Positions 1,630 to 60,600 of a DNA stretch of 64,000 nt are shown here, in pieces; the stretch's first letter is position 1, and every line of letters starts with the position of its first letter. This stretch comes from a virus (lineage: Duplodnaviria; Caudoviricetes). The notes beneath the pieces are model-generated. The model saw only the letters and a program-made list of their open reading frames with translations. It made no database searches and was not told the origin of the DNA. The stretch lies in IMG/VR virus record IMGVR_UViG_3300025011_000016; one strand, given 5' to 3'. Made by a program: the position numbers and the translations under genes.

Positions 1630-4600
1630 TTGGTTAATAAGAAATTTAAACTATCTATAAATGAGCAACCAAAAAAAATTGCCATCAAATTTGACATTTC
1701 GATTTTGAATTCTATGATCGGGTTTTTATTTAAACAATCAGTGCAAATTAATAGGAAAGCTCTTAATAATATGAAAAAATTATTTGATATTATTGATACA
1801 ACGATATATGAAGGTAATGATAAACTTGAAGCACGACTTAATTTTATAAAAACAGCTTTGGACGCTCGCATAACTAAACAATTCGAAAATGAAAGTATGA
1901 TTATAAATTTCTGTCGCGGTGATACTTATAATAAAGATACTGAAGAAATTATATCAGCAATCGGGGCCTATCGCAGAATAAACTACGAGGAGATAAAATT
2001 TATAAACAAAGCAATCCAAGATAGATTGAAATACTCTTATCTATTAGATATTAAAGATAGAATGTATAATGTTGTAGAGAAAATAGATTCTGGGGATTTT
2101 GAAAGCTTTCAGGATGTTAATGATGAATTAGTTGGACTATGTTCTCACCTATTGAATAAAACCAGAAAAACAAGTGTTCTTGATGATGTGACAACTTTTA
2201 GTTTAGATTCAGAATCATTTGAAACATCGATTACAGATATAGTCAATGCTCTCAGAGATCCATCAAAAAAATATAGGTGGCATTGTAGAGTAATTTACAA
2301 TGATAAACTTCTTTAATTGCGGGAAATCTCTTAGAGCTTCTTAATTGAAGATTGAGTAATCTGCATCCAATATTGTTAATACAACAATAAGGTTCAACGA
2401 CTAGAGTGTAAACTCGTAGATATATGAAATATATCGAAATGGGAAGCATCCTTGATGAAAAAGGTTGATGATATAGTCTTGTATCTTAATGTAAATTAAG
2501 GAAGTTCATAAGAGAACTGTATAGGAGTACATACCTATATGAAAAAACGCACGTATTTTGAAAACAGGCTTGAAAATGCTGAACCAGATACTGGCCCCTG
2601 GCTTTATATCTAAACGATTGTATATGTTTTTAGGCTTACCAGCTTATAAATAAGGTTGGCTCATTGGTAACAATGTGATATAAACTTCTTTAATTGCGGG
2701 GAACTTCTCATAGCTTTATACTAATAAAGATTGGACAATCCGCATCCAATATTCTTATAATAAGAATAAGGTTCAACGACTAGAGTGTAAACTCGTAGAT
2801 ATCGATAATATTGAAATGGGAAGCTCTCTTATTATATAAGAGATGAAGAGATAGTCTGGTATCCTATATTAATATAGGGAAGTTCATTTGAGAACTGTAT
2901 AGATTAATTATCTATATGAACATATCGGGTTTTAAATCAGGTATATTATTGAAAACTGCTAGAGATATAAAAAAGTATAATAAAGGAATTAAACCTAAAA
3001 AAGCAGGTAAAAAACCATGTGTATTATTACTAACACTTGAAAACTCAATTAGTGAATCCGTAGAGAGATTATTTAACATGGTTAGTACTTCTGAGGATAT
3101 TAGGAATTTTACTCCTAAGCAAGTTATTAAGAAATTAAAAGAAGATGGTGAATTAGTATTAACTGATGATGACGATATTGATATTATTATTAAATATTAT
3201 CCAAATAGAAGTATTGATACCTCTGATATATATACTATAGTTGAAGAATTAGCTGATGATGACAAAGAGGTAATAGCTTTAATTTTAGACTATATTAAAA
3301 GAATACGACCTGCTGAAAAAGCTAGTGACGAAAAAGAAGAATTAAAGAATATTACCAATGAATTGAAGAATCTAGCTACAGAATTAGATATACCAGTTAT
3401 TTCAGCCCATCAATATAGGGTGGCTTTATAGAGTGATTTATAAAGAGAACTTTTTTAATTGCAGGAAACTCCTTAGGACTTTATATAATAAAGATTGGAC
3501 AATCTGCATCCAATATTGTTAATACGACAATAAGGTTCAACGACTAGAGTGTGAACTCGTAGATATATAAGTTAATGATATATCGAAATTGAAAGCATCT
3601 AATAAGATGGTGATATAGTCTTGTATCCTATAGAAATATAGGGAAGTTCTTAAGAACTGCATTATATTACGAATAATGTGAAAATCGCAAATGAATAGAG
3701 CTGGAGCAAGTTCAGTTGATGCCGCATTACAAGCTAATAAAGAAGACTTGGCTAAATTTGTAGGTAGAGCCAATGTTGGAAGTGCCTATATTTCATGGGC
3801 CGCATGATGGTAATGTCATGTTGATACTTTTTTAATTGCAGGAAACTCCTTAGGACTTTATATAATAAAGATTGGACAATCTGCATCCAAGATTCTTACA
3901 TAAGAATAAGGTTCAACGACTAGAGTGTGAACTCGTAGATACTTTATGTATCGAAATGGAAAGCAACCTAATTTATAGGTTGAAGAGATAGTCTGGAATC
4001 CTAATGAGAATTAGGGATGTTTGAATAGAACTGGATTATATTACAAGTAATCTGAACATTACGGGGAAGTTTGTATAGAAGCTTCAACATACAGTAATGT
4101 ATGTTTTAAATTTTCTTTAATTGTCGGGGATCTCCTTATAGCTTAAACTACTTTCAATATAGTAATAATGTTTAAGATTGGACAATCCGCATCCAAGTCT
4201 CCCAAAAGAGAAAGGTTCAACGACTAGAGTGTAAACTCGTAGATACATTACGTATCGAAATAAGAAACCCCTTTATATAAAAAATATAGAGGGTGAAGAT
4301 ATAGTCTTGTATCCTAATTAATAATAGGGAAGTTCATAAGAGAACTGTATAAGTTTATGACTTATATGAAAATAACGACTTGAAAACTCAGATTGGGTAT
4401 GTATCATAAACGTCGAGCGTAAGAAAGGAACCGATCAATATTACTTAACCTTTAAAAGAGTTAAGATTCGTTATAGAGATCCAAATGATTTAGGTTATTT
4501 CAATCATCCATTTGATATTCAAAATAGAATGAAGCTTATTGACGACATATATTTAGAAAAATCATTATCTGAAGAAAGTCTAATGAGTGATTTTGAAGGT

Positions 4601-13898: not shown

Positions 13899-16800
13899 AT
13901 GGCTAAATTTACAGATGATCAAATAGAACACATAGAAAGTGACATAGAGAAGATTCAGACTAAGCCTAAATATAATTGGGCTATTATATAGTGATATATA
14001 ATATAAACTTTTTTAATTGACGGAAACTTCCTTAGAGTCTAAACTACTAAATTGATATTTTAGTATATTGATGGCTGAGTGTAATTAACTCAGGTATAGT
14101 AATAATGTTTAGGATTGGATAATCCGCATCCAAGTCTCTTATAATAAGAGAAAGGTTCAACGACTAAATGTAGAGCTCAAGTGAGTGGGTGGAAATCCCT
14201 TAAATCGAAATGGAAAGCATCTTTAATAAAAGATGATGATATAGTCTTATATCCTAATGAAAATTAGGGAAGTTCATAATAGAACTGCACAGCTCAGCAA
14301 ACTGTGTGAAATAATGAATATGTACGTCAGCTATTTAGCACACCTAGGCGCATTACATTTATCTAAAGAGGTAATAAATAATTCTATAGATGAATGTATT
14401 AATCAAAATTCACCAGCTAACGAAATTAATATATATTTAGATGAAGGTGAGAATACTTTACTAGTTGCTGATAATGGTAGAGGAATAGCTTTCGATAAAA
14501 TGGAAATTGTGTGCACTAAATTACAAGCAGGTAGTAAGTTTACCAGAGAGGGTAGTGGTGGAGCTTCTGCTGGAGAAAACGGGTGTGGCATTACGGCCGT
14601 GAATTCGCTGTCGGAACACTTTGAGATAATCTCAACTCGTTATGGTGAAAGGGCTATAATTGAATTTGAATCTGGTAAGTTGGTCAGGTCACCAGTAATT
14701 AAAAAAATCGGTGATAAAACTAAACACGGTACTACAGTAAAATTTAAACCCAATCCATTTTACATGGGTGACGATTGTGATATCCCAACAGATTTATTGA
14801 TTGAATGGATTGAAAAAATAGTTTATTTAATGCCATCAAATATAGAAATATCACTAAGTGTCTCCAGAAAAGGTAAAGAATCTGCAATAAATAAAAAGTA
14901 TCGTAATAAAAATGGTTTAAAGGACTATATTTTGAAATTGTGTAAAAAGCCTATTTTAGATCCAATTCATTTTATGAAATCTTTAAAAATTAAAGAATTT
15001 GATAAAGGTAGAGAGATCGAAAGATTCATTGGATTAGAAACAGCTTTTACTTACAATTCAAATAGTATGGAACCTATTATTGAATCATTTTGTAATTTTG
15101 TGGTCACTGTTGAAGGGGGTATTCACAACGATGCTGTTAAACAAGGTGTTGTCCAATTCTTAGTTAGGAAAACTAAGGAGGGTTTATCTGATAAAGAATC
15201 GAAAAATATTGATATACTACCTATAGACGCTACTCAAGGATTAGTGTTGACATTATACTTAAGTACCGATATGAATATGATGTTTGCATCACAAACGAAA
15301 GAAAAACTTTCTAATAATGCTTTCTTCAAACCACTCAGAAACATGACATTTAATTCATTGGATGAATACTTTAAAAAAGAAGTTAATGATTTAAAGAAGA
15401 TAACAAGTTTTATTAAGACTAATGCTAAAGCAAGAATTGAATCAAACAAAGCTAGAAATGCTGTTATTAAAGGTGAAACTACTTCATTCGAAGAACACAA
15501 AATGAAGAATTTCTCTCCTGCAAATAATTTAGGGAATGATTACAGAGAGTTATTTGTTATAGAAGGTAAATTAGATTGCCTTATTTTCTTTAATTGACGG
15601 GAAACTCCTTAGAACTTCTTAATTGAAGATTGGACAATCCGCAGCCAAGTCTCTTTATATAAGAGAAAGGTTCAACGACTAGAGTATGTAAGCTCGTAGG
15701 TTTATTTATAATCCGAAATGGGAAAACAATAGATTTATTCTATTGAAGAGATAGTCTAATATCCTAATTAACATTAGGGAAGTTCATAAGAGAACTGTAT
15801 AGAGTTATAATCTATATGAATGATTGGATTCAGCAAAGGGTAGTGCAAGGTTAGGTAGGGATACGGATACTCAGGCATTATTTGCAATGCGAGGAGTTCC
15901 ACTTAATAGTTTTAATCTAAAGTTAGATAAAGTTTTATTGAATGATGAATTTAGGGATTTAACTAAAGTATTAAAATGTAATATCGGTGAACGATTTGAT
16001 ATTACAAAACTAAATTATAAAAAAATAATCATACTTACGGATGCGGATTAATTCATAGTCCCATTATGTAGTGATATATAATGTAAACTTCTTTAATTGA
16101 CGGGAAACTCCTTAGAACTTCTTAATTGAAGATTGGACAATCCGCAGCCAAGTCTCTTTATATAAGAGAAAGGTCCAACGACTAATAGTAGGGCTCAAGT
16201 GAGTGGGGTAATAACACCCTTTAAATCGAAAATAGAGGCATCTTTTATAAGATGATGATATAGTCTACACTTTATTGAAAGATAAAGAAAGATAGCATCT
16301 TTACATTATCTAACGAATAATGTTAATATGAATGGATTGATGGTTTGAGAATAGCCTCACTAATTTGTGTATTCTTCTTATGTCATATGCCAGAGATAAT
16401 TAAGCAAGGATATTTATATAAATCAGTATCACCACTATATTTATTAAATGATACTAAGGGTCATTTTATTATTGATAAAAAAGAGTATGTATCAGTTTTT
16501 GAAAAAGCTGTTAGAAATAACATTAAAGTTATTGATCCAGAAACTAATATTGTTTATACTAATAATGAGATGAAAGAGTTACTATTAAAGAATAGGGGAT
16601 ATTTAGAGGAGTTATACCGAGTTAGTAATCATTTTGCAGTTAATCCTTTTATCATTGAATACATCACCATATATGGGGATCAATCAAATTTCATAAATAA
16701 AATGAAAAAGAAATTCCCTGAGTTAACACTTGATGAAGAAAATGTTTTATCTGGTATATATGAAGGAAAATATCAGATTATTATATTGGATAAAATATTC

Positions 16801-33527: not shown

Positions 33528-36500
33528 ATGGCAGTAACACCACCAAAGAAAGTGGTCCCAAATTTATCATTGAAAGAAACATTGCAAGAGAAGGAACAAT
33601 TATATCATGGTAAAGATGATATATTCGGAATGACATTACTTACCAATCCAGGGTATATTAGTGCATCTCGAAACATTATGTTTACTTCTCATTTAAGACA
33701 ATTCGTAAATTTGAATAAACCGGATTTCCCAAAAGTATTAACGAATTATGAAAATCTTGTTGGTAAACATTCAACTGGATATTTCAAACCTAAGAATGAT
33801 TTAATCGTTGTGGATAAGATACCCAAGTTTAATGATATAAATGATGCAAATCATTTATATCTATTATTCTTATATGATAAGAAGACTAATACTTACTCCG
33901 TTATACAGAAAAAGATCGTTGAAGATCTAACAGAGAAGTTTGGTTTTAAATATAAGAATGATCTTATGGATTCTAAATCTATCGGAGATAAAATACAAGG
34001 AGGTAAAACATTATATTCATCCACATCATATGATGAAGATGATAATTATAACTATGGTAGAAATATTAAGTTTATGTATCTACTTGAAAACAATACTATT
34101 GAAGATGCCATAAAGTGCTCTGAATCGTTATCTAAAGAAATGACTTCGACTGAGGTTGAAACTGTAAAGATATCATTCAATGATAATGAAATCATGTGTA
34201 ATCTTTATGGCAACAATGATGAATACAAAGGTTTTCCAGATATTAATGAAAGGGTTAAAGATAAGATCATATGTGCCAAAAGAAGAATTCATAACAATCA
34301 ATTATTATTCGATCTAAAGAAATCAAATCTACGTAAGATTAATTTTATGTCAGATAACTTATTCTTTATTGATGGAAAGATTGTTGATATTACTATCTAT
34401 TCAAATAAACCTATTGGAGAAATTGAAGATAATATCTTTAATCATCAAATGTTAAAATACCTTAAAATGCAAAAAGAATTTTATACTAAAGTTTTAGATA
34501 GGTGTAAAAAGATAATTGCATCTGGAGCTAAATATTCAAATGAAATAAATTTCTATTATAAGAAAGCTAAGAATATATTAGACGATAATTACATGTACAA
34601 GGAAGAAGATAACAGTGTATTTAGTAATATGGTTATTGAATTCCTTGTTGAACGAGAAGTTCCTTTATCAGTAGGACAGAAGATTACTGGTCGTTACGGT
34701 AATATAATTGCTGTATTTTCTTTAATTGTCGGGGATATCCTTATAGCTTAAACTACTATTAGTAACAAGTTTAAGATTGGACAATTCGCAGCCAAGATTG
34801 TTAATAAACAATAAGGTTCAACGACTAGAGTGAAAACTCGTAGATTCGAAAGAATTGAAATGGGAAAACGATAGATTTTAATCTATTGAAGATATAGTCT
34901 AATATCCTAATGGAAGTTAGGGAAGTTCATAAGAGAACTGCATTATATAATAATGTGAATACTTGAATAAAGGTATTATAAGTCAGATCATACCAGATGA
35001 AGAAATGCCATTTCTTGAAACTGGTGAACGTGTCGATTGTATATTCAACTCCCTAAAATTTTGGGGCTTTATGTAGTGATATATAATGAAAACTACTTTA
35101 ATTGCGGGAAAATTCTTATGGCTTTATAATATAAAGATTGGACAATCCGCAGCCAAGATTGTTAGTAAACAATAAGGTTCAACGACTAGAGTGAGAACTC
35201 GTAGATATTAATATCGAAATTGGTAGAATCTTCTATATAGAAGATTATGAGATAGTCTGGTATCCTATATAACTATAGGGAAGTTCATAAGGGAACTGCA
35301 TTAATTAATAATTACTGTGAACACAACGAGGTGTGATAAATCGCTTAACTGAGAAGGTCCGGGCGATGTAAAACCTTTCTAATTGCGGGGACATTTGTTA
35401 ATTTCAATTTACCAAGTTAATATATTAATGGCTTAGTCCAATCAACTAAGGTATGGTAATAAGAATTGAAATTGAGTAATCCGCAGCCAAGATTGTTAAT
35501 AAACAATAAGGTTCAACGACTAGAGTGAAAACTCGTAGGTTTATTTATAAGCCGAAACGGAAGGCTGGTAATACTTAATATTATTAGAAGATATAGTCTA
35601 AAACATTTGTGAACTCATTTCAGTTATATGAGCAGTCAATAAATTTTATATGTAATCGCATAAGAGAAAGAATTGCGATAACAGAAGATATCTCTATAAA
35701 AGAACAAATGGTATTTAGTATTGTGGGTCATTTTAATCCTGAAGAACAAAGAAGACTTAGGATATATTATGATAAGTTATCAGATAATGGTAAGGATCAT
35801 TTCTTCGATGATATAGTCAAGCAAGGTATCTATATACACATTCCTCCACTTTGGGAAGACGTATGTTTATTCGATAAACTAAGAGCAATATATGCTGAAT
35901 TCACATGGATAAAACCATACTCAGTTTATGTGAATAAATTTGGAAGAAAGATCAAAATGATGAAGGATTTAATTGTCGGAGAAATGTATGTTCTTAAATT
36001 AAATCAAACTTCAAAGAAAGGTTTTTCAGCCAGATCCACTGGTTCGTTATCGAAGAGAGGAATTCCTATTTATTTATATGGGACTATATAGAGTAATCTA
36101 TATTGTGAAAACATTTTAATTGACGGGAAACTCCTTAGAACTTCTTAATTGAAGATTGGACAATCCGCAGCCAAGTCTCTTATAATAAGAGAAAGGTTCA
36201 ACGACTAATTTAGAGCTCAAGTGAGTGGATGAGAATCCTTTTAAATCAAAATAAATGTCATCCGTAAAAATAATAAATAACGGATGGTGATATAGTCTTG
36301 TATCCTATATAGTTATAGGGAAGTTCATAAGAGAACTGCATAGATTAACGACCTATGTGAAAGTATCGGAGAAATCAAATAAAGCAAAAACCCATCAAGA
36401 ATTATATCCACATACGCCTCAATTTGTAGGGGCTGTTGTATAGTAATATATAATGAATCTTTCTTAATTGACGGGAACCTTCTTAGAGCCTTATTTACTA

Positions 36501-37552
36501 AACTATAAGTATTATAGTGGCCAGAATAATTAACTGGGTATAGTAATAAAAATAAGGATTGGATAATCCGCAGCCAAGATTCTTATATAAGAATAAGGTT
36601 CAACGACTATCGAAAGCTTTTAATTAAGTTAGTAGAGTAAGCTCACAAGTCAATAATGGTGAGTTAAAACAGAAAGCTCCTAGAAATAGGATAAAGATAT
36701 AGTCTGCTATCTCAAGGAAACTTGAGGAGTTCATAATGGAACTGCATAAATTGACGATTTATGTGAACAAAAAAGGATACGAATTGGAGATTACTTATAT
36801 AGTTTCCCTGCATAGTAATATGCAGTTTAACAACTCTTTTAATTGACGGGAAACTCCTTAGTGCTTTATAATATAAAGATTGGACAATCCGCAGCCAAGC
36901 CTCTTTATGAGAGAAAGGTTCAACGACTAGAGCATTGCTCATAGATTTACAAGTTAATGGTAAGTCGAAATGGAGAGCTCTATTAATAAACTTTATTAAT
37001 AGATGAAGATATAGTCTGCACCTTAAAGAAATTTAAGGACAATCTTTTGAATTGTAATACATGTTACGAATGTATTTAACATATTGGCAGGAAAATATTA
37101 ACAGTATGATAGGTGTCGATCCAGACATCATAGCTAAACTACATTTATTCTATAGGTCTTCAGTTGTTGGAAGAAGAAACTTAGGTGAAACTTTGGCAAC
37201 TAGACTTAAGTTATTAAATGATTTTAAGTATTCTGCGGAATTCAAAAATAGAAATGTTGAAATTTTACAGGCATATTTAAAAGCTATGGGCGTAAAGATT
37301 GTATTTGAAAATGAGAATATGTATATTGAAATCTATACTGATCAGTTAGAAGAATATTCATCTGAGGGTAGGATATATATATGTACTAAACGTGAGTTTG
37401 AAGCCGTTCAGAGAGAAGCAGAAGTTCGCAGAGAGTTCCGTGAGGATAAGTGCTTAGTGGGAACTCATGCTGAAGTTGAAGCTATTATTCAAGCTCGTAT
37501 CAGCGATCTAAACAAACGAGATACTCATTATGTAATTGACATAAATTTATAA
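33528..37552 (+). CDS. RNA polymerase beta-subunit C-terminal half (probably non-virion RNAP), 7 exons / 6 introns (~755 aa)
   Basis: Exons 33528-34700, 34966-35054, 35329-35345, 35610-36067, 36369-36419, 36777-36791 and 37088-37552 (2268 nt). Restores KITGRYG|NKG, FNSL|GVINR|LNSFQ, GIP|EK and TP|IRIGD|QEN. Confidence 0.88.
34701..34965 (+). ncRNA. Group I intron betaC-I1
   Basis: P1 TACGGT/GCTGTA and core motifs. Confidence 0.88.
35055..35328 (+). ncRNA. Group I intron betaC-I2
   Basis: P1 CCCT/GGGG and core motifs. Confidence 0.88.
35346..35609 (+). ncRNA. Group I intron betaC-I3 (no recognisable P9 domain)
   Basis: P1 ATCGCT/GGCGAT and core motifs. Only 11 nt lie between GATATAGTC and the terminal G. 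Confidence 0.8.
36068..36368 (+). ncRNA. Group I intron betaC-I4
   Basis: P1 TCCT/GGGA and core motifs. Confidence 0.88.
36420..36776 (+). ncRNA. Group I intron betaC-I5
   Basis: P1 GCCT/GGGC and core motifs with a variant P7-P8 region. Confidence 0.85.
36792..37087 (+). ncRNA. Group I intron betaC-I6
   Basis: P1 GGAGAT/GTTTCC and core motifs. Confidence 0.85.
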
Positions 37553-39186: not shown

Positions 39187-42100
39187 GTGAAAGATATGGA
39201 TAAGCAAAATATAATATCACAATTAAGTGATATTCATCAAAGGTTATTAGAAAAAGAAGATTTTGTTGATACTATACAGAGACTAGAATTAATGAAGATC
39301 AATAGACTTATCAATTATCTTTTATATGCAATTACTGAATATGATCCAGATGACAAATTAATACTTCAATTATTAATAAGGATATTGCAAAATATCTTTA
39401 ATAATAGTAGTGAAATATCTCCTGTGACCGATGAGGATTATGATAAATTATATGAGTTAAACAGACAATTTAATAATGAAGAAATTGTTGGATCGTCTTT
39501 TAATAAATCCAATAAGATAATTTCAAGTCATAAATATCCTGATTTGAGAGGAACTCTAGATAAGGTCCATTTCATTAGAATTAAAGATAAGGGTAAAGAC
39601 AAACGAAGATCTATAGAAGATTTTATTAATACTGTAGAAAATAAAATAGGCAGATCTTTAACTAAGGATGAATCATTCGCCTATCTATTTCCTAAATGGG
39701 ATGGTATATCATGTATATTCGAATGTGATGAAAATGGTAATACCGATAAGGCATTATCTAGAGGTGATACTGATATAAATGAAGCGGTCGACTGGACTAA
39801 ATTGTTTAAAGGATCTAATTTCAAGTATGTGTTCGGTAATGATATAAATAGATTATTTGGTTTAAAAACAGAGATTGTAATGAGTCGTTCAAATTATAAA
39901 TTAATATGTGAAAAAGAAGGAGATCTTAAAAGTCCAAGGAGTGCCGTATCGTCTATATTAACTTCATTAACTGGTGACACATCGAATTTACCATATCTAA
40001 CTATAATACCTTTACAGACTCAGGAGTTTGAAACTAAATCTATATATACTCCAACTATAGTATATGATGAGTTTCCATACAGTGGAGGATATTTAAACAA
40101 TTTAGATGAGATCGAATTAAGAATGTTGGAGTTAAGAGAACGTATTTATACTGAAATGGATATAGATACAGATGGTGTGGTTTTTCGTTTAGCTGATCCA
40201 TATATACAAAAACTATTGGGTCGGGAAGATAAGATAAATAAATATGAGTTTGCATATAAATTCCCTCCAGAACAAAAGAAAACTATAATTAAAAATGTTA
40301 ATTTCTCAGTTGGTCTTTTAGGTTCAGTGCGACCAGTAGCAGTAATAAAACCTGTTACAATAAAAGGTAATACTATAACCAATATATCATTGGGTTCTAT
40401 AGATAGATTTGAAGAATTGGATTTAAGATTAGGTGATGAAGTTATAATAAAATATGATGTTATACCATACCTATCAATAGATTCAACATGTAGAAAAGGA
40501 GATGGGACTAAGTTTACAACTCCAACAAAATGTATATATTGTAAGGAAGAATTAGTTAAAGATCCCATATTGAAATGTATTAACGAAAAATGTAATTGTC
40601 GAATTATAGGTAAGATTCTAAACTATACTAGTAAGATGAGTATTTCAAATATGGATGTTGGAACAGTAACCACTTTATTTGAAAATAAGTTATTACGATC
40701 TATTGGTGATCTATATAAACTCAAAGATCATAAATCTGATATAGTTTCATTAAGTGGTTTTGGTGAAAAATCCTTTAATAATATTATTAAAGGTATTGAT
40801 TCAAGACGAGATGTTTATGATTATGAGTTATTGGGTTCATTGGGTATTACAGATATAGGTAGGAAAATGTTTAAGCGAATTTTAAATATATATTATATTG
40901 ATGAACTTATAGATTCAAGTACATGAGTCTCATTGCATAGTGATATGTAATAGTAATTACTTTAATTGCGGGGATCTCCTTAGAACTTAAAACACTCTAA
41001 AGTAATAATGTTTAAGATTGGACAATCCGCAGCCAAGATTCTTAATAAAGAATAAGGTTCAACGACTATCCCAGTGGATGTGAAATTCATCATTAGGAGT
41101 AGGGCTCAAGTGAGTTGGGTGAAATCCCATTAAATCGAAATGAGTAACCCCATTATAAACCATTATAATGGGTGAAGATATAGTCTGTGCTTTAAGGAAA
41201 CTTAAAGATATAACTTAATCGTAAGTCCTAAAAATTTCATTTATATATTATTACTATGATACTAACAAATAATATAAGAAAGGAGGTGAATTAAATTGAT
41301 TAAAACTTTTAAAACAAGAATACGACCGACGAAAGAACAAGAAGTATATTTAAACAAATGCTTTGGATACAGAAGGTTTATATATAATAATGCTTTAGAA
41401 TACTTTAATACGATCTTAGAATTCAATGGTAATAATCTGGATAAAACATTAAAGAAGTTCTTTAATAAGTTTGATTATATCACTAATATATATTCTAAGA
41501 AAGAAAAAGAACCTGAACTGGAATGGACTAGGGAATATAATAAAAACATAAAGGATCAGGTATCTAGTGATTTTAATATAGCTGTTAATAGATTCTTTAA
41601 CGATATTAAAAATAAGAAGCGATGTAAACTTCATTTTAAAAGAAAGATCCATGGAAATGGGTCTTTTAGAATATACAATAAAAATAAAGGTAATGTTAAA
41701 ATTCTTGATAAAAACATATTCTCTTTTATTATTAATAGAGAATATGGTCATATGTCATTAAAAACATATGAAGATATAAGCTTTTTATATCATCATGATA
41801 TAAAAACTATGTCTATTCGTATGAAGAATTTTAAATATTATGTTTCATTCACCTATGAATTGGACATTCCAAAGCATGATCATGAGAAAGACATCATAGG
41901 TATAGACTTAGGGATACATAATCCAGTAGTTTGTTTTGATGGAAAAGATGTCATAGCTCCTAAATTTCCGAAAGGAATTATTAAGAGACTAGAGAAGAAA
42001 GTCGATAAGTTTTCAACGATAGTTTCTAAGAAGAAATATGATAAACGTAATCCATCAAAGAACTATATAAAAGCGAGAACCAAGCTTAATGATATTTATA

Positions 42101-42952
42101 TTAAAATAACAAATATCAGAATGGATTATATCCAGAAGGTATCTACATTTTTAGCTAAAACTTATAAAAACGTTATAGTTGATGAATTTAGTTTTAAGGA
42201 TGTATTAACAGAGTCTGATGGTATTGAGCGTATAAATAGAGGTATACACAGAGTTGGTGCCTTTACATTTACCACAGTGTTAAAATATAAATGCCACTTT
42301 TATGGTAGTGAATATATTTTAGCATTACCTAACAGTACGAACACATGCTCTGTTTGTAATCATAAAGTTAAAACTAAAATGAAGTTATCTCAAAGAGTCT
42401 TTAATTGCCCACAATGTGGACATATAGATGATAGAGATAACAATGCGGCTATTAATATCTATAATACATTTAAACGATCTTTATTAACTAACGTAAATAA
42501 AGATTTCGCCGTTGGTCGGACGGTTCAAAGAACCTAAACGGTTAAGTTATTATGGTATCTAACGAATACCATTAACACGACAGTTATGCCTAAAGAATAA
42601 GATGGGAGGGCTGTTATTAATCCGTGGGATTAAAGAAATAACAGCCGTTAAAATTATTGAGGGCATAAAGTCGAATAAAAAACTTATTGATTTATTACGA
42701 TCCGAGATTAATTTAAGGAGGGATGTAAGACGATATACAATTAAAGTATGTTTTACTAAAGTTAGAGATAAAGATTTTGAGAAATTTCTTGAAAGTAAGA
42801 ATGTATTGGTTCTTGAAAAATATAATAAGGAGGTTGATGTGTTAATCATACCTTATAAAGATATTGATTCAGTCAAAGTTACTACTGCGAAGAAAGATGG
42901 TAAGGATATCGTAACCATCGATGAAGCTTATAAGATGTTTGGTTATAAGTAG
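39187..42952 (+). CDS. ligA: NAD-dependent DNA ligase, 2 exons (~698 aa)
   Basis: Exon 1 39187-40914 has PKWDG, DGVV, AYKF and a C4 zinc finger. Exon 2 42584-42952 has HhH and BRCT-like tail. Junction LID|LCLK is in frame. Confidence 0.9.
40915..42583 (+). mobile_element. IStron-like element 3: group I intron + tnpB
   Basis: Inserted after TAGAT. P1 AGAT/GTCT, core motifs and right end ...TTAACACGACAG. Confidence 0.88.
41296..42537 (+). CDS. tnpB: TnpB, close paralog of 11110..12300
   Basis: Same motifs (GIDLG, CSVC..CPQC, DRDNNAAINI). TTG start after AAGGAGG. The ORF reads into the right-end RNA. Confidence 0.92.
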   Translation: MIKTFKTRIRPTKEQEVYLNKCFGYRRFIYNNALEYFNTILEFNGNNLDKTLKKFFNKFDYITNIYSKKEKEPELEWTREYNKNIKDQVSSDFNIAVNRFFNDIKNKKRCKLHFKRKIHGNGSFRIYNKNKGNVKILDKNIFSFIINREYGHMSLKTYEDISFLYHHDIKTMSIRMKNFKYYVSFTYELDIPKHDHEKDIIGIDLGIHNPVVCFDGKDVIAPKFPKGIIKRLEKKVDKFSTIVSKKKYDKRNPSKNYIKARTKLNDIYIKITNIRMDYIQKVSTFLAKTYKNVIVDEFSFKDVLTESDGIERINRGIHRVGAFTFTTVLKYKCHFYGSEYILALPNSTNTCSVCNHKVKTKMKLSQRVFNCPQCGHIDDRDNNAAINIYNTFKRSLLTNVNKDFAVGRTVQRT

Positions 42953-43393: not shown

Positions 43394-43525
43394 AACTGGC
43401 AACGACATAGACAATGAGTTATTAACTAACTCATTGTCTATGTCAATTTAATGATACAATTTTTTTATTAATTAAGAGATGTTTTGTAATAGTTTAAACA
43501 TTATAGAGAGTTGGGGGAGTAATTC

Positions 43526-46500
43526 TTGAAGGACTTCATAAAGGATTATAACAACACCAATGAAGAAAATATCAATTTTGATCTAATGACACGATCACAT
43601 GATGCTGATTTAACAGAGTATGTTGTTAATACCTGTAAATCATTAGAAGTTCTTAAATATATTAAATTCATTGGTTATGAATATATAACTGATGAAACGA
43701 AAATAGATATTAATTACTATATGAGTACGAGGAAGAAAAGTAAGAAGAAAAATGAAACAAAGTATATGTACCTGCAAGATAGTCGATATGGTGAAATGCA
43801 TTTAAAGTTTCATTTAAAATGTAAAGATCGATCATTAACTTTTATCAAGAAGATATTATTACCAGTGGCTGATGATAATGATTATTATTTAGTTAAAGGT
43901 AAAAGACATTCATTATTATATCAACTAGTTGATAGTTCAACTTATACAACTAGACAGAATTTAACATTAAAATCATTAAGACCTATTACGATGAAACGAA
44001 CTGAAAGAATATATTCAGATACAGATGGTACTAAACATTCAGCTCCTTCATATGCAATTTATATCTTCAAGAAAGAAGTAGATATATTATTATTCTATTT
44101 TGCAAAGATAGGTGTGTCAAGAACTTTAGAATATTTTTCAGTAAATCATATAATGAAGTTTAAATCAGAAATTGAAGATACTATCAATAATATATATTTC
44201 TCAATTAATAGTAAATTACATGTAGAGATCAATAGACATTTCTTTGATAAATATCCATATGTTAAGAGTATAGTATTTATGATATTGAATATTTGCACTA
44301 ATAGATTAACTGTTGAAGATCTAGAAAATAAATCTTTCTGGATTGAAAAGATAGGCTCTATGAATGCGACTAATGCATATAACTATCTAGAAAAAGGTAC
44401 TAATACTTTAGTATTCTTTGATAGGTTATTAGATGAAACAACTAAGAATATTTTAAAAATTCATGATGAGAATAATAAAAATATATACTCTGTAATTCGT
44501 TGGATTAAATTATAGTCCCATTATAGAGTGATCTATATTGAAAACTTCTTTAATTGTCGGGAAACTCCTTAGTGCTTTATAAAGATAAAGATTGGACAAT
44601 CCGCAGCCAAGATTCTTATAATAGGAATAAGGTTCAACGACTAATTTAGAGCTCAAGTGAGTGAGTTTAATATAACTCTTAAATCGAAATAAGAAGCATC
44701 TTATATAAGATGATGATATAGTCTGTGCTTTATTGAAAGATAAAGAAAGATAACATCTTTACATTATCTAACGAATAATGTTAACACTCAGGTTTCAAAA
44801 CTTTAATGAATTACGTAAGAAAGATAATCTTGATCTTGCCAATAAACGTTTACGATGTAATGAACTCATCGCATCATTATTAACTAAAGCTTTTAGTACT
44901 AGAGTTGATAGAATTATTGGTTTTGGTAATAAAGTTACGTTAGATAACATTAAGGAAATATTCAAATTTCCAGGTGATGTAATAATGCAGCAATTGCATA
45001 AGTCAGGATTATTTAGATATGATATTTTATTGTCCATTATAGTAGTGATATTATAATGAATTTTCTTTAATTGGCGGGGACATTCTTAGGGCTTAAACTA
45101 CTAAAATATATCAGTGATGATATACTAACTAAGAGTAACTAACTTAGTATGAGTAATAATGTTTAAGATTGGACAATCCGCAGCTAAGCATCTTTATATA
45201 AACCCCCATAATTATTAATACGTTATACAATATAAAGGAGAGGTGTGACTGTAATGAAAGGACGATTGGGTGAAAATAAATGTCCCTCTTGTTACGAATA
45301 ATTATTCAATTAATTCTGAGGGATTTATTAGGAATGATAAATTCAATAGAATTTTGACCCGATGGAAAAATAATAGAGGTTATGAAGCTGTGCAATTATC
45401 ATGTATTGATGGTATAACAAGAAGTTTTACAATTCATAGATTGATGGCTCATCATTTTATACCAGGGTTCGACATTTCAGATAGATCCATTGTTGTTCAT
45501 CATAAGGACAGTGTAAATAAAACTAACTCATTAGATCTTCTAACCGTTTGTACTCAAAAAGAAAATATTAAGTATTCTATCGAAGAAGGTAATAAACCAA
45601 ATGGTGAAAAACATCCGATGGGTAAATTTCCAGATGAGCTGGCTAATAAAATAGTTGCCTTATTACAAAAAGAAAAAAGTACCGATGAAATATTTAATAT
45701 ATTAGATTTAGAAGTTAAGAAGAATATGCGTATATTTATAAATGATCTTAGAGCTAAACGAACCCGATTGTATTTAACTGAAGGTTTGGATTTAAAGAAG
45801 CATGTGCAGGAAAAACATGATATAAACTTGGTGAAGAGGGTGATTCGTTATATGAAGATAGGTATGACGGTAGATAATATAATCAATATGATTGGAAAAG
45901 GAAATGCTGGTAGGCATGAAAGGGAGAGATACTCCTCGTTAATACAAAGGATACATGACGGGAAAGCGTGGGGAAGATTATATAAAGATGATAGTTCAAC
46001 GACTAATGATGACTACATGGTTATTAAAATTAAAATGTAGTTATAGATTTACAAGCTAATGGTAAATCGAAATGGGGAACACCTCATATTAAGTTGATAT
46101 GAGATGAAGATATAGTCTGGTATCCTAATATTAAATTAGGGAAGTTCATAAGAGAACTGGGTTTCGTTGCGGAAAACCTGAACCTGGGGATAAAATTAAC
46201 GATCTCGACTTCTTTAGTAAGTTCAAATATACCCTAAATTTTGGGGCGTTATAGAGTGATCTATATAGATAAAATTCTTTAATTGTCGGGGAACTCCTTA
46301 GAACTTCTTAATTGAAGATTGGACAATCCGCAGCCAAGATTGTTGATAAACAATAAGGTTCAACGACTAGAGTATAACTCGTAGATATATAAGTTAATGA
46401 TATATCGAAATAAGTTTAATCTTCTTATAGAAGATTGTGATATAGTCTTGTATCCTATATAACATTAGGGAAGTTCATTTGAGAACTGTATAGAGTTACG

Positions 46501-47746
46501 ATCTATATGAAAGTATACGTAAAGGACCAAATTCCTTGGGTTTTAATAAATAGGCCCATGATCTTTTAATTGCGGGAAACTCCTTAGTACTTCTATATGA
46601 AGATTGGACAATCCGCAGCCAAAATTGTTGATAAACAATAAGGTTCAACGACTAGAGTATAACTCGTAGATATATAAGTTAATGATATATCGAAATATAG
46701 AACTATCGAAAGATAAAGAGATAGTCTGGTATCCTAATTAACATTAGGGAAGTTCACAGGAGAACTGCATTATTTTACGAATAATGTGAACTCATCGAAT
46801 AAAAATGATAATAATATCTCAGTTAAATATCGCGGCATACACCCGAGTTATCTGGCCCGCGTAGATATTAACGTTTGCGGTGAACGTAGAAATATAATTG
46901 CCGCCTTTTCTTTAATTGACGGGAACTCCCTTATAGCTTAAACTACTAATAGTAACAAGTTTAAGATTGGACAATCCGCAGCCAAGATTGTTATAAAACA
47001 ATAAGGTTCAACGACTAGAGTGATAACTCGTAGATTCGAAAGAATTGAAATGGGAAAACGATAGAGTTATTCTATTGAAGATATAGTCTAATATCCTAAT
47101 ATAAGTTAGGGAAGTTCATAAGAGAACTGCATAGATTGATAAACTGTGTGAATAAATGAATTCAGACCCTAGAAATAAATTTGGGGCAATATCGAGTGAT
47201 CGTTATTGTTAAACTACCTTGACTGCGGGAAACTTCTTAGAGCTTTAAATTGATAAAGATTGAACAATCCGCACCCGATATTCTATATAATAGAATAAAG
47301 TTCAACGACTAGAGCATATTTGCTCGTAGATATAAAGTTATATCGAAATTAGTAGAATCTCTTAGGAGATTATGAGATAGTCTGGTATCCTATATAACTA
47401 TAGGGAAGTTCATAAGAGAACTGTACTATTTAACGAATAGTATGAACACACGGGAACTAGTGGTATTATAACACCATTCTGTAAAACTAGTGGATTATTC
47501 TTCGATGGTGCATTTGAACCAGAAAGTTTTAAATATGATTTTGATAAGGAGATAACTGACTTTAGAAAATCAACTAGTAATAACATAATTGTTGATACTC
47601 ACTATGATAATATATCTGAGTATTTTGAAGGTAGAGAACGATTTAAAGAAATGAATAGTCGAATCAAAATATCAGAGATTGAACGAACTGATAATAGTAA
47701 GTATTATATTAAAATTAAGCTTGCTAGTAATACTGATGATATATAA
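43526..47746 (+). CDS. RNA polymerase beta-subunit N-terminal half (probably non-virion RNAP), 7 exons / 6 introns (~556 aa)
   Basis: Exons 43526-44505, 44792-45023, 46189-46235, 46520-46541, 46798-46881, 47159-47170 and 47453-47746 (1671 nt). Restores KFKYT|LKGPNSLG|NKN..RGIHPSYLARVDINVCG|NSDP|GTSG, matching the RpoB fork-loop region. Confidence 0.85.
44506..44791 (+). ncRNA. Group I intron betaN-I1
   Basis: P1 GGAT/GTCC and core motifs. Confidence 0.87.
45024..46188 (+). mobile_element. Group I intron betaN-I2 with HNH ORF
   Basis: P1 GAT/GTC. Q precedes the ORF, R lies inside the ORF 3' end, and S is at 46107. Confidence 0.85.
45270..46040 (+). CDS. Intron-encoded HNH homing endonuclease
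   Basis: IHRLMAHHF..VHHKDSVNKTN..TQKEN. GTG start. Confidence 0.8.
   Translation: MKINVPLVTNNYSINSEGFIRNDKFNRILTRWKNNRGYEAVQLSCIDGITRSFTIHRLMAHHFIPGFDISDRSIVVHHKDSVNKTNSLDLLTVCTQKENIKYSIEEGNKPNGEKHPMGKFPDELANKIVALLQKEKSTDEIFNILDLEVKKNMRIFINDLRAKRTRLYLTEGLDLKKHVQEKHDINLVKRVIRYMKIGMTVDNIINMIGKGNAGRHERERYSSLIQRIHDGKAWGRLYKDDSSTTNDDYMVIKIKM
46236..46519 (+). ncRNA. Group I intron betaN-I3
   Basis: P1 CCCT/GGGG and core motifs. Confidence 0.87.
46542..46797 (+). ncRNA. Group I intron betaN-I4
   Basis: P1 TGGGT/GCCCA and core motifs. Confidence 0.87.
46882..47158 (+). ncRNA. Group I intron betaN-I5
   Basis: P1 GCGGT/GCCGC and core motifs. Confidence 0.87.
47171..47452 (+). ncRNA. Group I intron betaN-I6
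   Basis: P1 CCCT/GGGG and slightly divergent core (GACTGCGGGAAA, AATCCGCACC). Confidence 0.85.
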
Positions 47747-47821
47747 GGAAACTAAAATTTCCATTATATTCCTGCTCTAATAAAATAAAGATAAGGGCTT
47801 AAAAACCCTTATTTTTTTAAA

Positions 47822-47855
47822 TATATATTATATAATGAATCAAGTAAATATATAA
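47822..47855 (+). promoter_or_regulatory. Early-type promoter cassette, copy 1 of a 34-nt exact repeat
   Basis: TATATATTATATAATGAATCAAGTAAATATATAA, identical at 48615-48648. Confidence 0.65.
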
Positions 47856-47870
47856 AGGGGGAATTACATA

Positions 47871-48539
47871 ATGACTGACAAAGAAAAAATTAAACAACAT
47901 CCTGCGTATATCCAGTACATTAAAAACCCTAGTAAAAAACTTCAAAAAATTGCACTTAAGAAAAGTGGAGGTAGTATATTCAAGTATATTAAAAAACCAA
48001 GTAAGAAAATTCAATTTCTTGCAGTTTCATTATTTGATCGTAATATTAAATACATCAAAAATCCGCGTGAAGGATTGCAATTAGCGGCAGTTCAAAATGA
48101 TGGATCGAATATTCAATATATTAAAAATCCGAGTACTATGATTCAACATAAGGCGGTATCTACAAATGGTGACGCTATTAAATATATCAAAAATCCGAGT
48201 GAGGAAATACAATTAGCTGCTATATATGAAAACCCATGGAGTATTAAATATATCAATAACCCCAATAAACGTGTGCAGTTAGCTGCTGTGACGTTAGTTG
48301 GTCATGTAATTCAATACATTAATACAGACCTTGACAAAGACGTGCAGTTAGCTGCAATAAAAGAGAATAAATATGTAAGTAAATATGAACATGAAAACAT
48401 TACCATCGACCCATATGATACGGATGATGGATGTTCTGTGTTGCCATATCGATATATGCGTCGTGATATATTACCATTCGCGTATATTCAAAACCCAGAT
48501 CCTGATGTAATTGACTATATGGTGCGGAATATATTATAA
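47871..48539 (+). CDS. Tandem-repeat protein (~23-aa IxYIKNPSxxxQLAAV repeats, DUF4116-like)
   Basis: About 7 repeat units are visible in the translation. Confidence 0.7.
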   Translation: MTDKEKIKQHPAYIQYIKNPSKKLQKIALKKSGGSIFKYIKKPSKKIQFLAVSLFDRNIKYIKNPREGLQLAAVQNDGSNIQYIKNPSTMIQHKAVSTNGDAIKYIKNPSEEIQLAAIYENPWSIKYINNPNKRVQLAAVTLVGHVIQYINTDLDKDVQLAAIKENKYVSKYEHENITIDPYDTDDGCSVLPYRYMRRDILPFAYIQNPDPDVIDYMVRNIL

Positions 48540-56989: not shown

Positions 56990-59900
56990 ATGGATTTCAT
57001 GAAAGGTATTAATAAAGAGAATGTCATGTTAATTAATATAATATATCATAATAAGAGAAAAGAGAATAATTATAATGATTACTTAGATATTATCACTAAA
57101 GATTTAACCACAGGTGAAAAAATACTTACAACTATCGAGAATCCTGAAATGGATATATATTTTACAAAAGAGGAGCATAGAAATTATGACTATAATAAGA
57201 ACTTTATGGAAATTGATAAGACTGATAGACATAGATTTAAATATAAAGATCTAACTAGATCCATAGCTAAAATGGCTGGGCCTAGTTATGAGAACTTCAT
57301 TAAACAATCTATAGAAACACAAAATTATGCTAGAATAAATAATATCCATAAATATAAATATGTATTTGGATCTGATGTTGATATTGAAAATTGGTATAGA
57401 ATTCAATGGTTATTAAATTATGATAATAATAAACCTAAATCCGTAACTAAGCTATTTCTCGACATAGAAGTCGACGGTCGGGATGTACCTGGATTCCCCA
57501 GAGATGGTGAAGTGCCAATTAATGCTGTAACGATAGTAGATGAATTTAGTAATCAATCATTTACATTCTTATTGGATAATCCATTAAACCCTCAAATAGA
57601 AGATTTTAAAAATGATGTGGAATCTTTTGTTGAAGAACTACATAATGATTTTGATGAATCATATGGGGAATTAAAATATAACTTATTTATTTATGATGAT
57701 GAAGTTCAAATGTTAATAGATGTATTTAAATTGATTAACACTCTGAACCGAGATTTCCTATTAGTGTGGAATATGAGTAAAATGATGCTCCTTATAAAGG
57801 CGACTTTATAAGAAAATTTCTTTAACTGCTGGAAACTCCTTAGAGCCTTTATTATCAGAGTATAATAATATAAAGGATTGGGCAATCAGCAATCAAGTTC
57901 AATAACAAACTAAGTTTTATTACATTTATTAGAGGAGGGTAAAACATGTATATAGTAATACGCAAAGATAAAGAAGTATTTAAATTATCAACTTATCCTG
58001 GGATTAAAAAAGATATGTATTCTATTAGTAACTACGGGTCTATACGTAATAATGTGACAAACGAGATATTTTTTCCAACATCGAGAAACTCAGCAGGTTA
58101 TGTACACACTTCTTTATGTACAGAATCATTTAAAGTTTACACTAGTGTTTTGGTATCACGTTTAGTTGCTTGGGAATTTTGTGATGGTTATGATAAGGAA
58201 CTAAATAGGGTGGAAGTCAATCATAAAGATATCAACAGGGCTAATAATTATTATGAGAATTTAGAATGGGTGACTCGGGGAGAAAATACTAAATTTGCCT
58301 ACGTGCATGGCAATCGTAAGGTGATAGTGCCAGATTCTAGGGGACCAAGAGCAAAGATACGCGGATCATTAAATCCCAAGAATGTTTTCAGTGAAGAGTT
58401 TGTACATGAACTCTGTCAGTTATTCACGGACGGTAAGAGCACTAAAGAGATATTAAAAATATTCAATACGAGTAAAAAATTAAATACACAACTCTATTCA
58501 TTACTCATGACTTTGAAACATAGAAAAGGATGGGGACATATTACGGAAAAATATGTATATTGATATTTGTTATTGAAAAGATTCAACGACTAGAGTGAGA
58601 ACTCGTAGACCCTTTTCATGGGGTGGACATAATAAGTCCTTCGCGAAATGGGAAACATCTCCGATGTGGAGATGAAGATATAGTCTGATATCTTAGGGAA
58701 ATCCTAAGGAAGTTCATAAGAGAACTGCGTAGTATAAAAAACTATGTGAACTGTTTGTTCGATGTGCCGTACATGATCGCACGTATGTTAGAATTAGGAA
58801 TGAATCCTGTTGAAGTGATGTGTCATAAAGATTTTAAAATACAAGAAGCTTTTTTCAAAAAAGATCTTCGAAATTTTATGATAGCTAATAAAGGAGATTA
58901 TTTTAAGATATCATCTTATACTGTATATTTAGACCAAATGATAGTATATGCCAGTTTAAGAAAAGGAGGTAGTCAGTTACGATCAAATGCTCTTAGCTAC
59001 ATTGCTCAAGTTGAAATTGGTGATGAAAAATTAGACTATTCTGAAGATGCTAATATCAAAACTTTACCATATGTTAATTACAAGAAATTCGTTAAATACA
59101 ATATCAAAGACGTTTTACTACAACTTGGAATTGAGAGAAAAACTCATGATATTGATAATGTTTATTTAAGATCGTATACAAATGTAACAGCTTATTCAAA
59201 AGTATTTAGACAAACGGTATTTTATAGTGCCGGTGATTCTTTAATTGACGGGAAACTCCTTATAGCTTCTTAATGAAGATTGGACAATCCGCAGCCAAGA
59301 TTCTTATAATAAGAATAAGGTTCAACGACTAGAGTATAACTCGTAGGTTTAATAACTGAAATGGGAAACCGATAGAATTTATTCTATTGAAGATATAGTC
59401 TATTATCCTAAAGTAATTTAGGGAAGTTCATAAGAGAACTACATTATCTTACAAATAATGTGAATTATAGGTTCTTAAAAAACAGAGCATTTTTAGAGTT
59501 TTATAAACAAGGTTTGATTATTGGTAATAATACCAATATTGATTATGGATTACCTCCTCAGATAGCTAAAGAAAAAGATGAGGATGATGAGAAATTTGCA
59601 GGTGCATTAGTTGGTGATCCTGAATTGAATAGTAAGACTGGTATAATGATGTTAGGAACTCCAAGTAAATACATCTATGATAACGTTGTAGATATGGATA
59701 GCTTTGTCCCATTATGTAGTAATATGTAATGAAAACTTCTTTAATTGACGGGGAACTCCTTAGAACTTCTTAATCGAAGATTGGACAATCCGCAGCCAAG
59801 ATTCTTATTATATAGAATAAGGCTCAACGACTATCCCATTGGTATTGAAATATACAACAGGAGTAGGGCTCAAATGAGTGGGTGAAATTCCCTTAAATCG

Positions 59901-60600
59901 AAATAAGAAGCATCTTATATAAGATGATGATATAGTCTGAACTCATATGAGAATATGAGAGAGTTTACTTTATATTATCTAATAAATAATATTAACAAAT
60001 TGATGGGTAAATATTGCTCATATAAAACTTCTTTAATTGACGGGAAACTCCTTAGAACTTCTTAACTGAAGATTGGACAATCCGCAGCCAAGATTCTTAC
60101 ATAAGAATAAGGTTCAACGACTAGAGTGTGACTCGTAGATATAAAGTTATATCGAAATGAAAAGCTCTCTTAATAAGAGATGAAGATATAGTCTAATATC
60201 CTATATAATTATAGGGAAGTTCATAAGAGAACTGTATAGAGTTACGATCTATATGAATACCATGGCGTTTTATCCTAATATGATTATGGCTTTTAATATA
60301 TCACCAAATTGTATAATCGGTAAATTACTCTTAGACACAACCATAGAAGACCTATATAATATCAAAGATATTGAAGCCGATATATATGATTGTGGGCGAG
60401 ACTTCGTAGATAACATGTTAATTAACAATCCTGGTAACATGGGCAGTAAATGGTTTAATCTTCCGAAAATAGAAGAACTTAATGAGTTAATACGAGAGAA
60501 GTTCTTAATGAATAAGAAGACTAAACTAATTATACCTGACTCATATAAAGATAAGTTATTTATTGAGAATCTAGTAATAAATATTAAAGGAGTGAAATGA
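56990..60600 (+). CDS. Family-B DNA polymerase, exonuclease + motif A part of a split enzyme; 5 exons / 4 introns (~606 aa)
   Basis: Exons 56990-57778, 58758-59218, 59471-59699, 60003-60008 and 60265-60600. ExoI FLDIE, ExoII WNMS|FD, ExoIII YNIKD and motif A VVDMD|MG|AFYP. Confidence 0.88.
57779..58757 (+). mobile_element. Group I intron pol-I1 with HNH ORF
   Basis: P1 GAGT/GCTC. Divergent core (AACTGCTGGAAA, AATCAGCAA), R GATTCAACGACTA and S AAGATATAGTC. Confidence 0.87.
57946..58563 (+). CDS. Intron-encoded NUMOD4/HNH homing endonuclease
   Basis: SRLVAWEF..NHKDINRANNYYENLEW. Paralog of 25080. Confidence 0.85.
   Translation: MYIVIRKDKEVFKLSTYPGIKKDMYSISNYGSIRNNVTNEIFFPTSRNSAGYVHTSLCTESFKVYTSVLVSRLVAWEFCDGYDKELNRVEVNHKDINRANNYYENLEWVTRGENTKFAYVHGNRKVIVPDSRGPRAKIRGSLNPKNVFSEEFVHELCQLFTDGKSTKEILKIFNTSKKLNTQLYSLLMTLKHRKGWGHITEKYVY
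59219..59470 (+). ncRNA. Group I intron pol-I2
   Basis: P1 CGGT/GCCG and core motifs. Confidence 0.87.
59700..60002 (+). ncRNA. Group I intron pol-I3
   Basis: P1 GGAT/GTCC and core motifs. Ends AAATTG. Confidence 0.85.
60009..60264 (+). ncRNA. Group I intron pol-I4
   Basis: P1 TGGGT/GCTCA and core motifs. Confidence 0.85.

Follow-up and report, generated by a model that had tools for sequence, protein, structure and literature searches.

A groundwater jumbo phage with six putative self-splicing group I introns, all of one family, in its gene for the N-terminal half of a non-virion RNA polymerase beta subunit

Group I introns in phage genes are already known, and this includes the RNA polymerase (RNAP) genes of jumbo phages. 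The present analysis concerns such a gene at positions 43526-47746 (plus strand, 4221 nucleotides (nt)) of the viral record IMGVR_UViG_3300025011_000016; the whole stretch of 64 kb that was analysed is called the window below. The source is an uncultured groundwater jumbo phage of the AR9/PBS1 type, and the gene encodes the N-terminal half of the beta subunit of its non-virion RNAP (nvRNAP). For Bacillus phage AR9 itself, the passages on the genes concerned place the early gene g190 inside an intron of the late gene g189 (PMC5312081). As far as these passages go, AR9/PBS1 and the window agree in that a multisubunit RNAP gene is interrupted by a group I intron which itself contains a gene, and protein homology assigns them to the same lineage. 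In contrast to the six introns of the window gene, its AR9 homolog gp105 is uninterrupted. In phage PhiPA3, the gene for virion RNAP beta has a group I intron that encodes gp210, an HNH homing endonuclease (PMC11620839). There, as in the window, a group I intron with an HNH gene sits at a highly conserved motif of a beta-like RNAP gene of a jumbo phage. PhiPA3 differs in that it is a nucleus-forming Pseudomonas phage with a single intron, located in another subunit and at another site, whose activity and competitive effect were established by experiment, whereas the window gene has six introns, five of them without a nuclease gene, and is known here from sequence alone. The orf142 gene of Staphylococcus phage Twort (work of Landthaler and Shub from 1999) reportedly contains three group I introns, compared with six in the window gene, and shows exon skipping.

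Large numbers of introns have been described for whole phage genomes. The relevant passages give 18.5 group I introns per 360-402-kb genome for the Jug phages (PMC12880540) and 45 introns in 37 genes for the Bastillevirinae (PMC11878797). Like the window, these passages describe large phages, cultured or uncultured, with essential genes broken by many group I introns and with abundant HNH genes. The density that can be taken from them is about 0.05 introns per kb in intron-rich huge phages, compared with about 0.37 per kb in the window, and the passages on both groups make no mention of exons of 12-22 nt (PMC12880540, PMC11878797). For mitochondrial cox1, passages of two reports describe many group I introns in Agaricus bisporus (PMC2987802) and micro-exons in placozoans (PMC5436844). 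According to these passages, cox1 resembles the window gene in having many introns packed into the best-conserved part of an essential gene, with very short exons between them; it differs in belonging to an organelle genome and in having introns of different families, in contrast to one recently expanded family in the window. In organelles, maturases and nuclear factors often assist splicing. It has been proposed that the split RNAP genes of jumbo phages originated from heavy intron traffic and subsequent rearrangement (PMC7598289), and the window locus fits this proposal. What is unusual here is that a single gene has six introns, that five of these fall within 55 codons, and that complete ribozymes are separated by exons of only 12 and 22 nt.

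The gene is a homolog of AR9 gp105, an uninterrupted gene of 1491 nt whose product is annotated as nvRNAP beta subunit, N-terminal half. We consider it very probable from the sequence that this gene of the window has been invaded by six selfish group I introns that are capable of self-splicing and belong to a single phage intron family. The exons, the introns and the open reading frame (ORF) within intron 2 are listed below, with bit scores referring to the Rfam model RF00028.

43526..44505, plus strand: exon 1, 980 nt; starts with TTG, preceded by GGGGGAG at a distance of 7 nt; residues 1-326 and 2 nt of codon 327; tblastn match to gp105 residues 2-323 (E 2.5e-51)
44506..44791, plus strand: intron 1, 286 nt, ORF-less, phase 2 (326.67); 84.8 bits at 44496-44745; P1 GGAU/AGUCC with U.G at the splice site; ends in G; the junction restores RWM as in relatives
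44792..45023, plus strand: exon 2, 232 nt; residues 327-404; aligns to AR9 gp105 at about 324-401 and to relatives
45024..46188, plus strand: intron 2, 1165 nt, phase 0 after D404; HNH ORF between P6 and P7; P1 with U.G
45270..46040, plus strand: predicted intron-encoded HNH endonuclease ORF, 256 amino acids (aa), GTG start, 771 nt; PHROG 59 (E 3.1e-17) and PHROG 959 (E 4.9e-15)
46189..46235, plus strand: exon 3, 47 nt; residues 405-419 and 2 nt; DKINDLDFFSKFKYT matches DKINDMDFFSKFRYT of relatives
46236..46519, plus strand: intron 3, 284 nt, ORF-less, phase 2 in codon 420; 59.1 bits at 46225-46470; P1 CCCU/GGGG
46520..46541, plus strand: exon 4, 22 nt; completes L420, then KGPNSLG; relatives have TLKGPNSLG
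46542..46797, plus strand: intron 4, 256 nt, ORF-less, phase 0 after G427; 68.7 bits at 46519-46749; P1 UGGGU/GCCCA
46798..46881, plus strand: exon 5, 84 nt; residues 428-455 (NKNDNNISVKYRGIHPSYLARVDINVCG); aligns to AR9 RGLHPSYLGRLGL and to relatives
46882..47158, plus strand: intron 5, 277 nt, ORF-less, phase 0 after G455; 69.6 bits at 46853-47111; P1 GCGGU/GCCGC
47159..47170, plus strand: exon 6, 12 nt, AATTCAGACCCT, encoding NSDP, residues 456-459; relatives have CGNSDPGTSG, AR9 has AGDPGASG
47171..47452, plus strand: intron 6, 282 nt, ORF-less, phase 0 after P459; 43.1 bits (E 8e-9) at 47161-47405; P1 CCCU/GGGG
47453..47746, plus strand: exon 7, 294 nt including TAA; residues 460-556; GTSGIITPF corresponds to AR9 GASGSLTPF; C-terminus colinear with the relative P0002 to residue 556

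The ORF from 43526 to 44515 corresponds to the N-terminal two thirds of AR9 gp105, and tblastn located the remaining third in pieces that lie in three different frames between the introns. Exon 1 matched AR9 positions 83359-84324 with 99% coverage (tblastn, E 8e-38) and showed 29% identity to gp105. P0002, an uninterrupted relative with 69% identity to the window protein, matched chain c of PDB entry 7S00, the nvRNAP beta subunit of AR9, over residues 3-495 with E 4.5e-75. The junctions were fixed by alignment to uninterrupted relatives of 556 aa (68-69% identity), which had been found by a protein search with exon 1, and by the rules for group I introns. Joined in order, all seven exons are in frame and yield an ORF of 1671 nt with a single stop codon at its end and no internal stop. 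Over its full length (residues 1-556) the product is colinear with residues 1-556 of P0002, and its identity to P0004, another uninterrupted relative of 556 aa, is 68%. An earlier note on this DNA had staked its reading on a spliced ORF of exactly this length, and exon joining recovered it. The assignment to the N-terminal half of RNAP beta, also made there, is borne out by the homology to gp105 and by the end-to-end alignment to P0002. The six introns of that note, its outer boundaries at 44506 and 47452 and its exons of 47, 22, 84 and 12 nt recur in the homology-based model, and the 165 coding nt it saw scattered over ~1.3 kb measure 47+22+84+12 = 165 nt over 1264 nt. One detail has to be corrected: the gene does contain six introns, but only introns 2 to 6 bound the micro-exons, whereas intron 1 lies 232 coding nt upstream of them.

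Conservation was assessed against 59 full-length relatives. The spliced protein keeps 41 of 42 invariant columns of the family and 37 of 39 near-invariant ones, and one of the two near-invariant misses is merely the TTG start. Residues 404-459, where five of the six introns are located, are the stretch richest in family-conserved residues; the density of conserved columns per residue is 0.29 in 405-459, compared with 0.13 for exon 1 and 0.06 for exon 7. Residues 404-463 may correspond to the rifampicin-region motifs of Escherichia coli RpoB (GPGG, HPSHYGR), which searches of PDB and Pfam could not confirm. A profile of the intron-rich segment matched AR9 alone in PDB and no bacterial beta subunit. 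No Pfam family was matched at E<=0.01, and the Rpb2 domain 3 family PF04565 (Rpb2_3) appeared faintly with the segments of 3 of 20 relatives (best E 0.16). A megablast search of the whole locus against GenBank phages gave no match. ORF callers lose about a quarter of this essential gene.

Several other placements were considered and rejected. Using the ends of the Rfam hits (...TTAGGG) as 3' splice sites is excluded by about 47 further structured bases that covary, and the later G alone gives homologous junctions. A fourth exon at 46497-46518 is in frame, yet it reads TIYMKVY where relatives read KGPNSLG, and a 23-nt exon 4 combined with a 95-nt exon 5 is ruled out by the homologs and by the conserved TGAA-N-G end of the introns. 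The start of intron 5 in the Rfam hit (46853) lies 29 nt too far upstream and counts exon bases as intron; the P1 pairing GCGGU/GCCGC places the splice after 46881. Readings as an intein, a split gene or a frameshift were dismissed, since the inserts contain ribozyme cores and have stops in all frames, and since separate proteins cannot come from exons of 4-28 codons.

The classification of the inserts as group I introns was based on covariance models, core motifs, pairings at the splice sites and the structure of the 3' ends. In the whole-window Rfam run, introns 1, 3, 4 and 5 exceeded the RF00028 gathering score of 50 bits. A permissive Rfam scan was also run on 43400-48000; intron 1 is absent from its list despite 84.8 bits in the whole-window run, which is a quirk of filtering or reporting by the tool and not a property of the sequence. 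Using motif strings taken from the window's own intron family as probes, the three downstream core motifs (P4'-P6, J6/7-P7 and J8/7-P7') were found in order and with 0-2 mismatches in all six introns. In intron 2 the core motifs follow one another as AATCCGCAGC at 45175, GTTCAACGACTA at 45994 and AGATATAGTC at 46108, with the tail hairpin at 46142. The J3/4-P4 probe had 2-4 substitutions in introns 1, 3, 5 and 6; its best match in intron 2 (45264) is misplaced, and an AATTG-GCGGGG element was seen there by eye alone.

Folding of exon positions -8 to -1 together with the 5' end of the intron (RNAfold) showed that in all six introns the U at position -1 pairs with a G of the guide sequence in P1, with energies from -1.4 kcal/mol (intron 2) to -8.9 kcal/mol (intron 5). 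All six introns also end in G. The about 47 bases that follow "...TTAGGG" are common to most introns of the window and consist of two hairpins, TGAA, 5-8 bases and the G. In an alignment of this tail from 21 introns, 91% of the cells were paired compared with 72% in shuffles, and 48 cells were changed on both sides. Both-side changes occurred in 8 of the 12 pairs of the hairpins. As high a level of pairing was reached in 0 of 500 shuffles, and no slid register came near. Since the tail hairpins covary, the about 47 tail bases are intron RNA.

Group I splicing requires guanosine and Mg2+. From these features the six introns are predicted to self-splice, and the pre-mRNA would be made whole by six independent, guanosine-initiated cis-splicing reactions, in which each intron would find its own 5' exon through a guide pairing of 4-5 nt. 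Omission of exon 5, of exon 6, of both of these or of exons 3 and 4 together would preserve the reading frame. The smallest exons have to serve two introns at once, and a 12-nt exon must be the 3'-exon guide target of one intron and the 5'-exon guide target of the next. Bases 9-12 of exon 6 (CCCU) pair with the guide of intron 6 in P1, and bases 1-4 (AAUU) can pair with AAUU directly 5' of the guide G of intron 5, which is the canonical place for P10. With the first four bases of exon 6 available for P10 and the last four for P1, a length of 12 nt would accommodate the two contacts without any overlap. In the 22-nt exon 4, UGGGU is similarly available to intron 4, and AAA to intron 3. The locus can serve as a test case of how adjacent and closely related ribozymes choose the correct splice sites.

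The distribution of introns in the family was determined with 107 related loci, collected from sets of metagenomic and viral contigs; on each locus the tblastn matches of the spliced protein were chained. Most of the 107 loci are uninterrupted, and these include the closest full-length relatives (69% identity, for example L006, L084 and L103). One or two introns were found at 13 distinct loci, and none of the 107 has more. The refined junctions in relatives are at protein positions 351.33, 404, 419.67, 422, 425.67, about 435.67, 458/459 and 460.33, compared with 326.67, 404, 419.67, 427, 455 and 459 in the window. The sites shared to the base include 404, 419.67 (also in L016) and 459 (also in L012). 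The clustering of the relatives' junctions at 404-460 points to an insertion hot spot across the family, and the finding that relatives have no more than two introns, most of them none, indicates that the introns are optional mobile elements.

The inserts of the relatives escape standard searches. At the gathering threshold, 145 kb of relatives' loci gave 0 group I introns with Rfam, and at E<=1 two RF00028 matches were obtained for five of these loci, both in L015. At least 13 inserts (in L002, L012-L016, L024, L027, L069, L091, L092 and L098) nevertheless contain the core motifs and the 3' tail of the family. In the motif search most of them had the core in order with 0-1 mismatch in the P7 strands, and nearly all had the same tail; the agreement was poorer in L016 and L069. 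The length of these inserts is mostly 900-1400 nt, and their P6 loops contain HNH ORFs. An ORF at this place breaks the match to the model, so that surveys based on cmscan undercount ORF-bearing phage introns.

Intron 2 of the window gene is organised in the same way. The predicted HNH protein had no Pfam match, and HNH_3 was absent even at E<=10; the ORFs in the relatives' introns carry PF13392 and PF07463. The protein is 56-58% identical to the ORFs of introns at the same site (aa 404) in L014, L011 and L088, but only about 30% identical to those at other sites, and the 5' part of intron 2 is nearest to the same-site intron of the related phage L014. The last ~15 codons of the HNH ORF (45994-46040) overlap the J6/7-P7 strand of the ribozyme, the motif given above for position 45994, so that coding sequence and catalytic core share bases. 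This kinship of nuclease and intron is the pattern expected of a site-specific homing lineage, and intron 2 may have arrived, or may be kept, by nuclease-driven homing.

The five introns without an ORF show a different kinship. The 64-kb window, with a G+C content of about 30%, contains 22 RF00028 introns at the curated threshold, all on the plus strand and four of them in the studied stretch; in total at least 24 introns of one family are spread over many of its genes, which corresponds to ~0.37 per kb. By a lenient measure the window introns are 61-89% alike, and introns 3 and 4 have a stretch of about 100 nt in common. The nearest kin of introns 1, 3, 4, 5 and 6 are located in other genes of the window, behind the same 4-5 exon bases: intron 1 and its kin at 16039 both follow GGAU, introns 3 and 6 and the intron at 35045 all follow CCCU, and intron 4 and the intron at 59999 both follow UGGGU. 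Intron 5 (GCGGU) and its kin at 34665 (ACGGU) share CGGU and differ in the base before it, and the guide changes in step from GCCGC to GCUGU, a compensating change. When the 3' 170 nt alone were compared, which excludes the guide, 3 of 5 nearest kin shared the tetramer, against a base rate of about 8% among 14 readable introns; this is a rough count and not a formal test.

These ORF-less mini-introns may have spread within the genome by guide-directed insertion resembling reverse splicing, or they may have lost a nuclease gene after homing. That all five spread by reverse splicing into RNA and copying back into DNA, and not by nuclease homing, is a tentative proposal which we regard as possible but doubtful. 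The pattern may also stem from concerted evolution or from a trans-acting nuclease. Transposition bursts of group I introns to new sites have long been proposed and rarely caught in the act; if the proposal is true, the window would be a natural case of an ongoing one. In any case the locus holds side by side an intron with a nuclease gene, whose relatives occupy the same site in other phages, and nuclease-less copies, whose kin are elsewhere in the same genome.

Taken together, the best-supported reading of the locus is ordinary in kind and extreme in degree, namely the repeated invasion of an essential gene by selfish introns. The pile-up would reflect sites where insertions are tolerated and hard to delete, and not designed control. 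The most conserved parts of the gene would tolerate precise excision alone, and related phages would offer donors. The six splicing steps may entail a cost or a delay in expression. Several observations weigh against parts of this reading. Intron 6 with its 43.1 bits stays under the Rfam gathering threshold, and Rfam matches intron 2 in its 3' part alone (46013-46141, 21 bits, E 0.027); the lack of a full match for intron 2 is due to the 771-nt ORF that splits it. The P1 of intron 2 is weak (4 bp, -1.4 kcal/mol), and the P10 pairings are short (3-7 bp) and were read by eye. Codon 447 (GCC, 46855-46857) encodes Ala, while AR9 and all the full-length relatives (59 of 59) have Gly; this position belongs to the motif HPSY-x-G-R and is the sole invariant one lost in the window protein. 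Finally, reverse splicing is deduced from five introns and a rough base rate, and the similarity of their 5' parts partly includes the guide itself.

One alternative is that the array is kept as a shield: by lying in or next to the target sites of competitors' intron nucleases, the introns would destroy these targets and so protect the essential gene, and the nuclease of intron 2 would attack intron-less rivals. By established homing biology insertion at a site removes the intact target, and relatives do carry nuclease-bearing introns of the same family at 404, 419.67, 422, 425.67 and 458-460. For PhiPA3 competing with PhiKZ, the HNH intron in the RNAP beta gene gave a measured competitive advantage (PMC11620839), an analogy that lends the shield some plausibility. 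However, an array that was selected for and an array that was left behind are not told apart by these observations, and because immunity is an automatic by-product of homing, no selection is needed to explain it. We judge selective maintenance for immunity to be unlikely, and prefer the accumulation of selfish introns without such a role.

The earlier note had suggested that splicing efficiency, depending on Mg2+, GTP and temperature, could act as a multiplicative checkpoint on phage transcription. Spelled out, the introns would be kept because the product of six efficiencies makes the yield of the late-transcription polymerase respond steeply to Mg2+, GTP or temperature, and splicing would time or gate the switch to late genes. 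The note's premise that a full-length subunit needs all six excisions is true by construction, as the 556-aa product is not obtained otherwise, and the established dependence of group I splicing on guanosine and Mg2+ is in line with it, as is the description of the AR9 non-virion polymerase as the late-gene enzyme in the relevant passage on this phage (PMC5449584). Beyond this the multiplication is arithmetic. A regulatory checkpoint would predict a conserved arrangement, which is not seen: relatives at 59-69% identity have no introns at all, and others have one or two at differing sites. The same introns occur in many unrelated genes of the window, one of the six carries a nuclease of the homing type, and no sequence feature specific for regulation was found. 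The functional reading is thus unsupported, and a checkpoint appears highly improbable compared with invasion by selfish introns.

That the gene does not work at all, either because it is a pseudogene in decay or because repeated intron copies were misassembled, with an exon model that fits by coincidence, is suggested by the likeness of the introns (65-89%), which invites assembly errors, by one collapsed contig described below and by the invariant Gly replaced by Ala, but it is hardly credible in view of seven exons in order and in frame, 41 of 42 invariant residues kept, U.G and terminal-G rules obeyed at 6 of 6 splice sites, and three other assemblies identical over the 4221 nt. These assemblies (L110, L111 and L113) come from different samples and consist of scaffolds of 248 kb and 242 kb and one of 29 kb; they agree with the window at 100% identity, which means that the locus is not a one-off misassembly, and shorter contigs agree over their own span with the exception of L114.

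L114 is a 4.5-kb contig of the same phage (99.3% identity) in which introns 3 and 4 are fused; its positions 3000-3300 correspond to 46339-46624 of the window. A deletion of 286 nt begins within intron 3, ends at the corresponding point of intron 4 and runs across the ~100-nt stretch common to both. What remains is a single hybrid intron; exon 4 is lost, and splicing would give a message with a shifted frame. This form is either an assembly collapse or a defective recombinant, and in both cases it shows the fragility of such an intron array.

Further dense clusters of the same intron family are located in the window at 2241-4329, 34665-37038 and 59184-60216, with 5, 6 and 3 Rfam hits, respectively. 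The gene interrupted in the cluster at 34665-37038 contains a GRYG/NKG motif and is probably the C-terminal half of RNAP beta. Just upstream of the studied gene, a TnpB-type ORF (OrfB_IS605, Cas12f1-like TNB) is present at 41296-42537 inside a DNA ligase gene.

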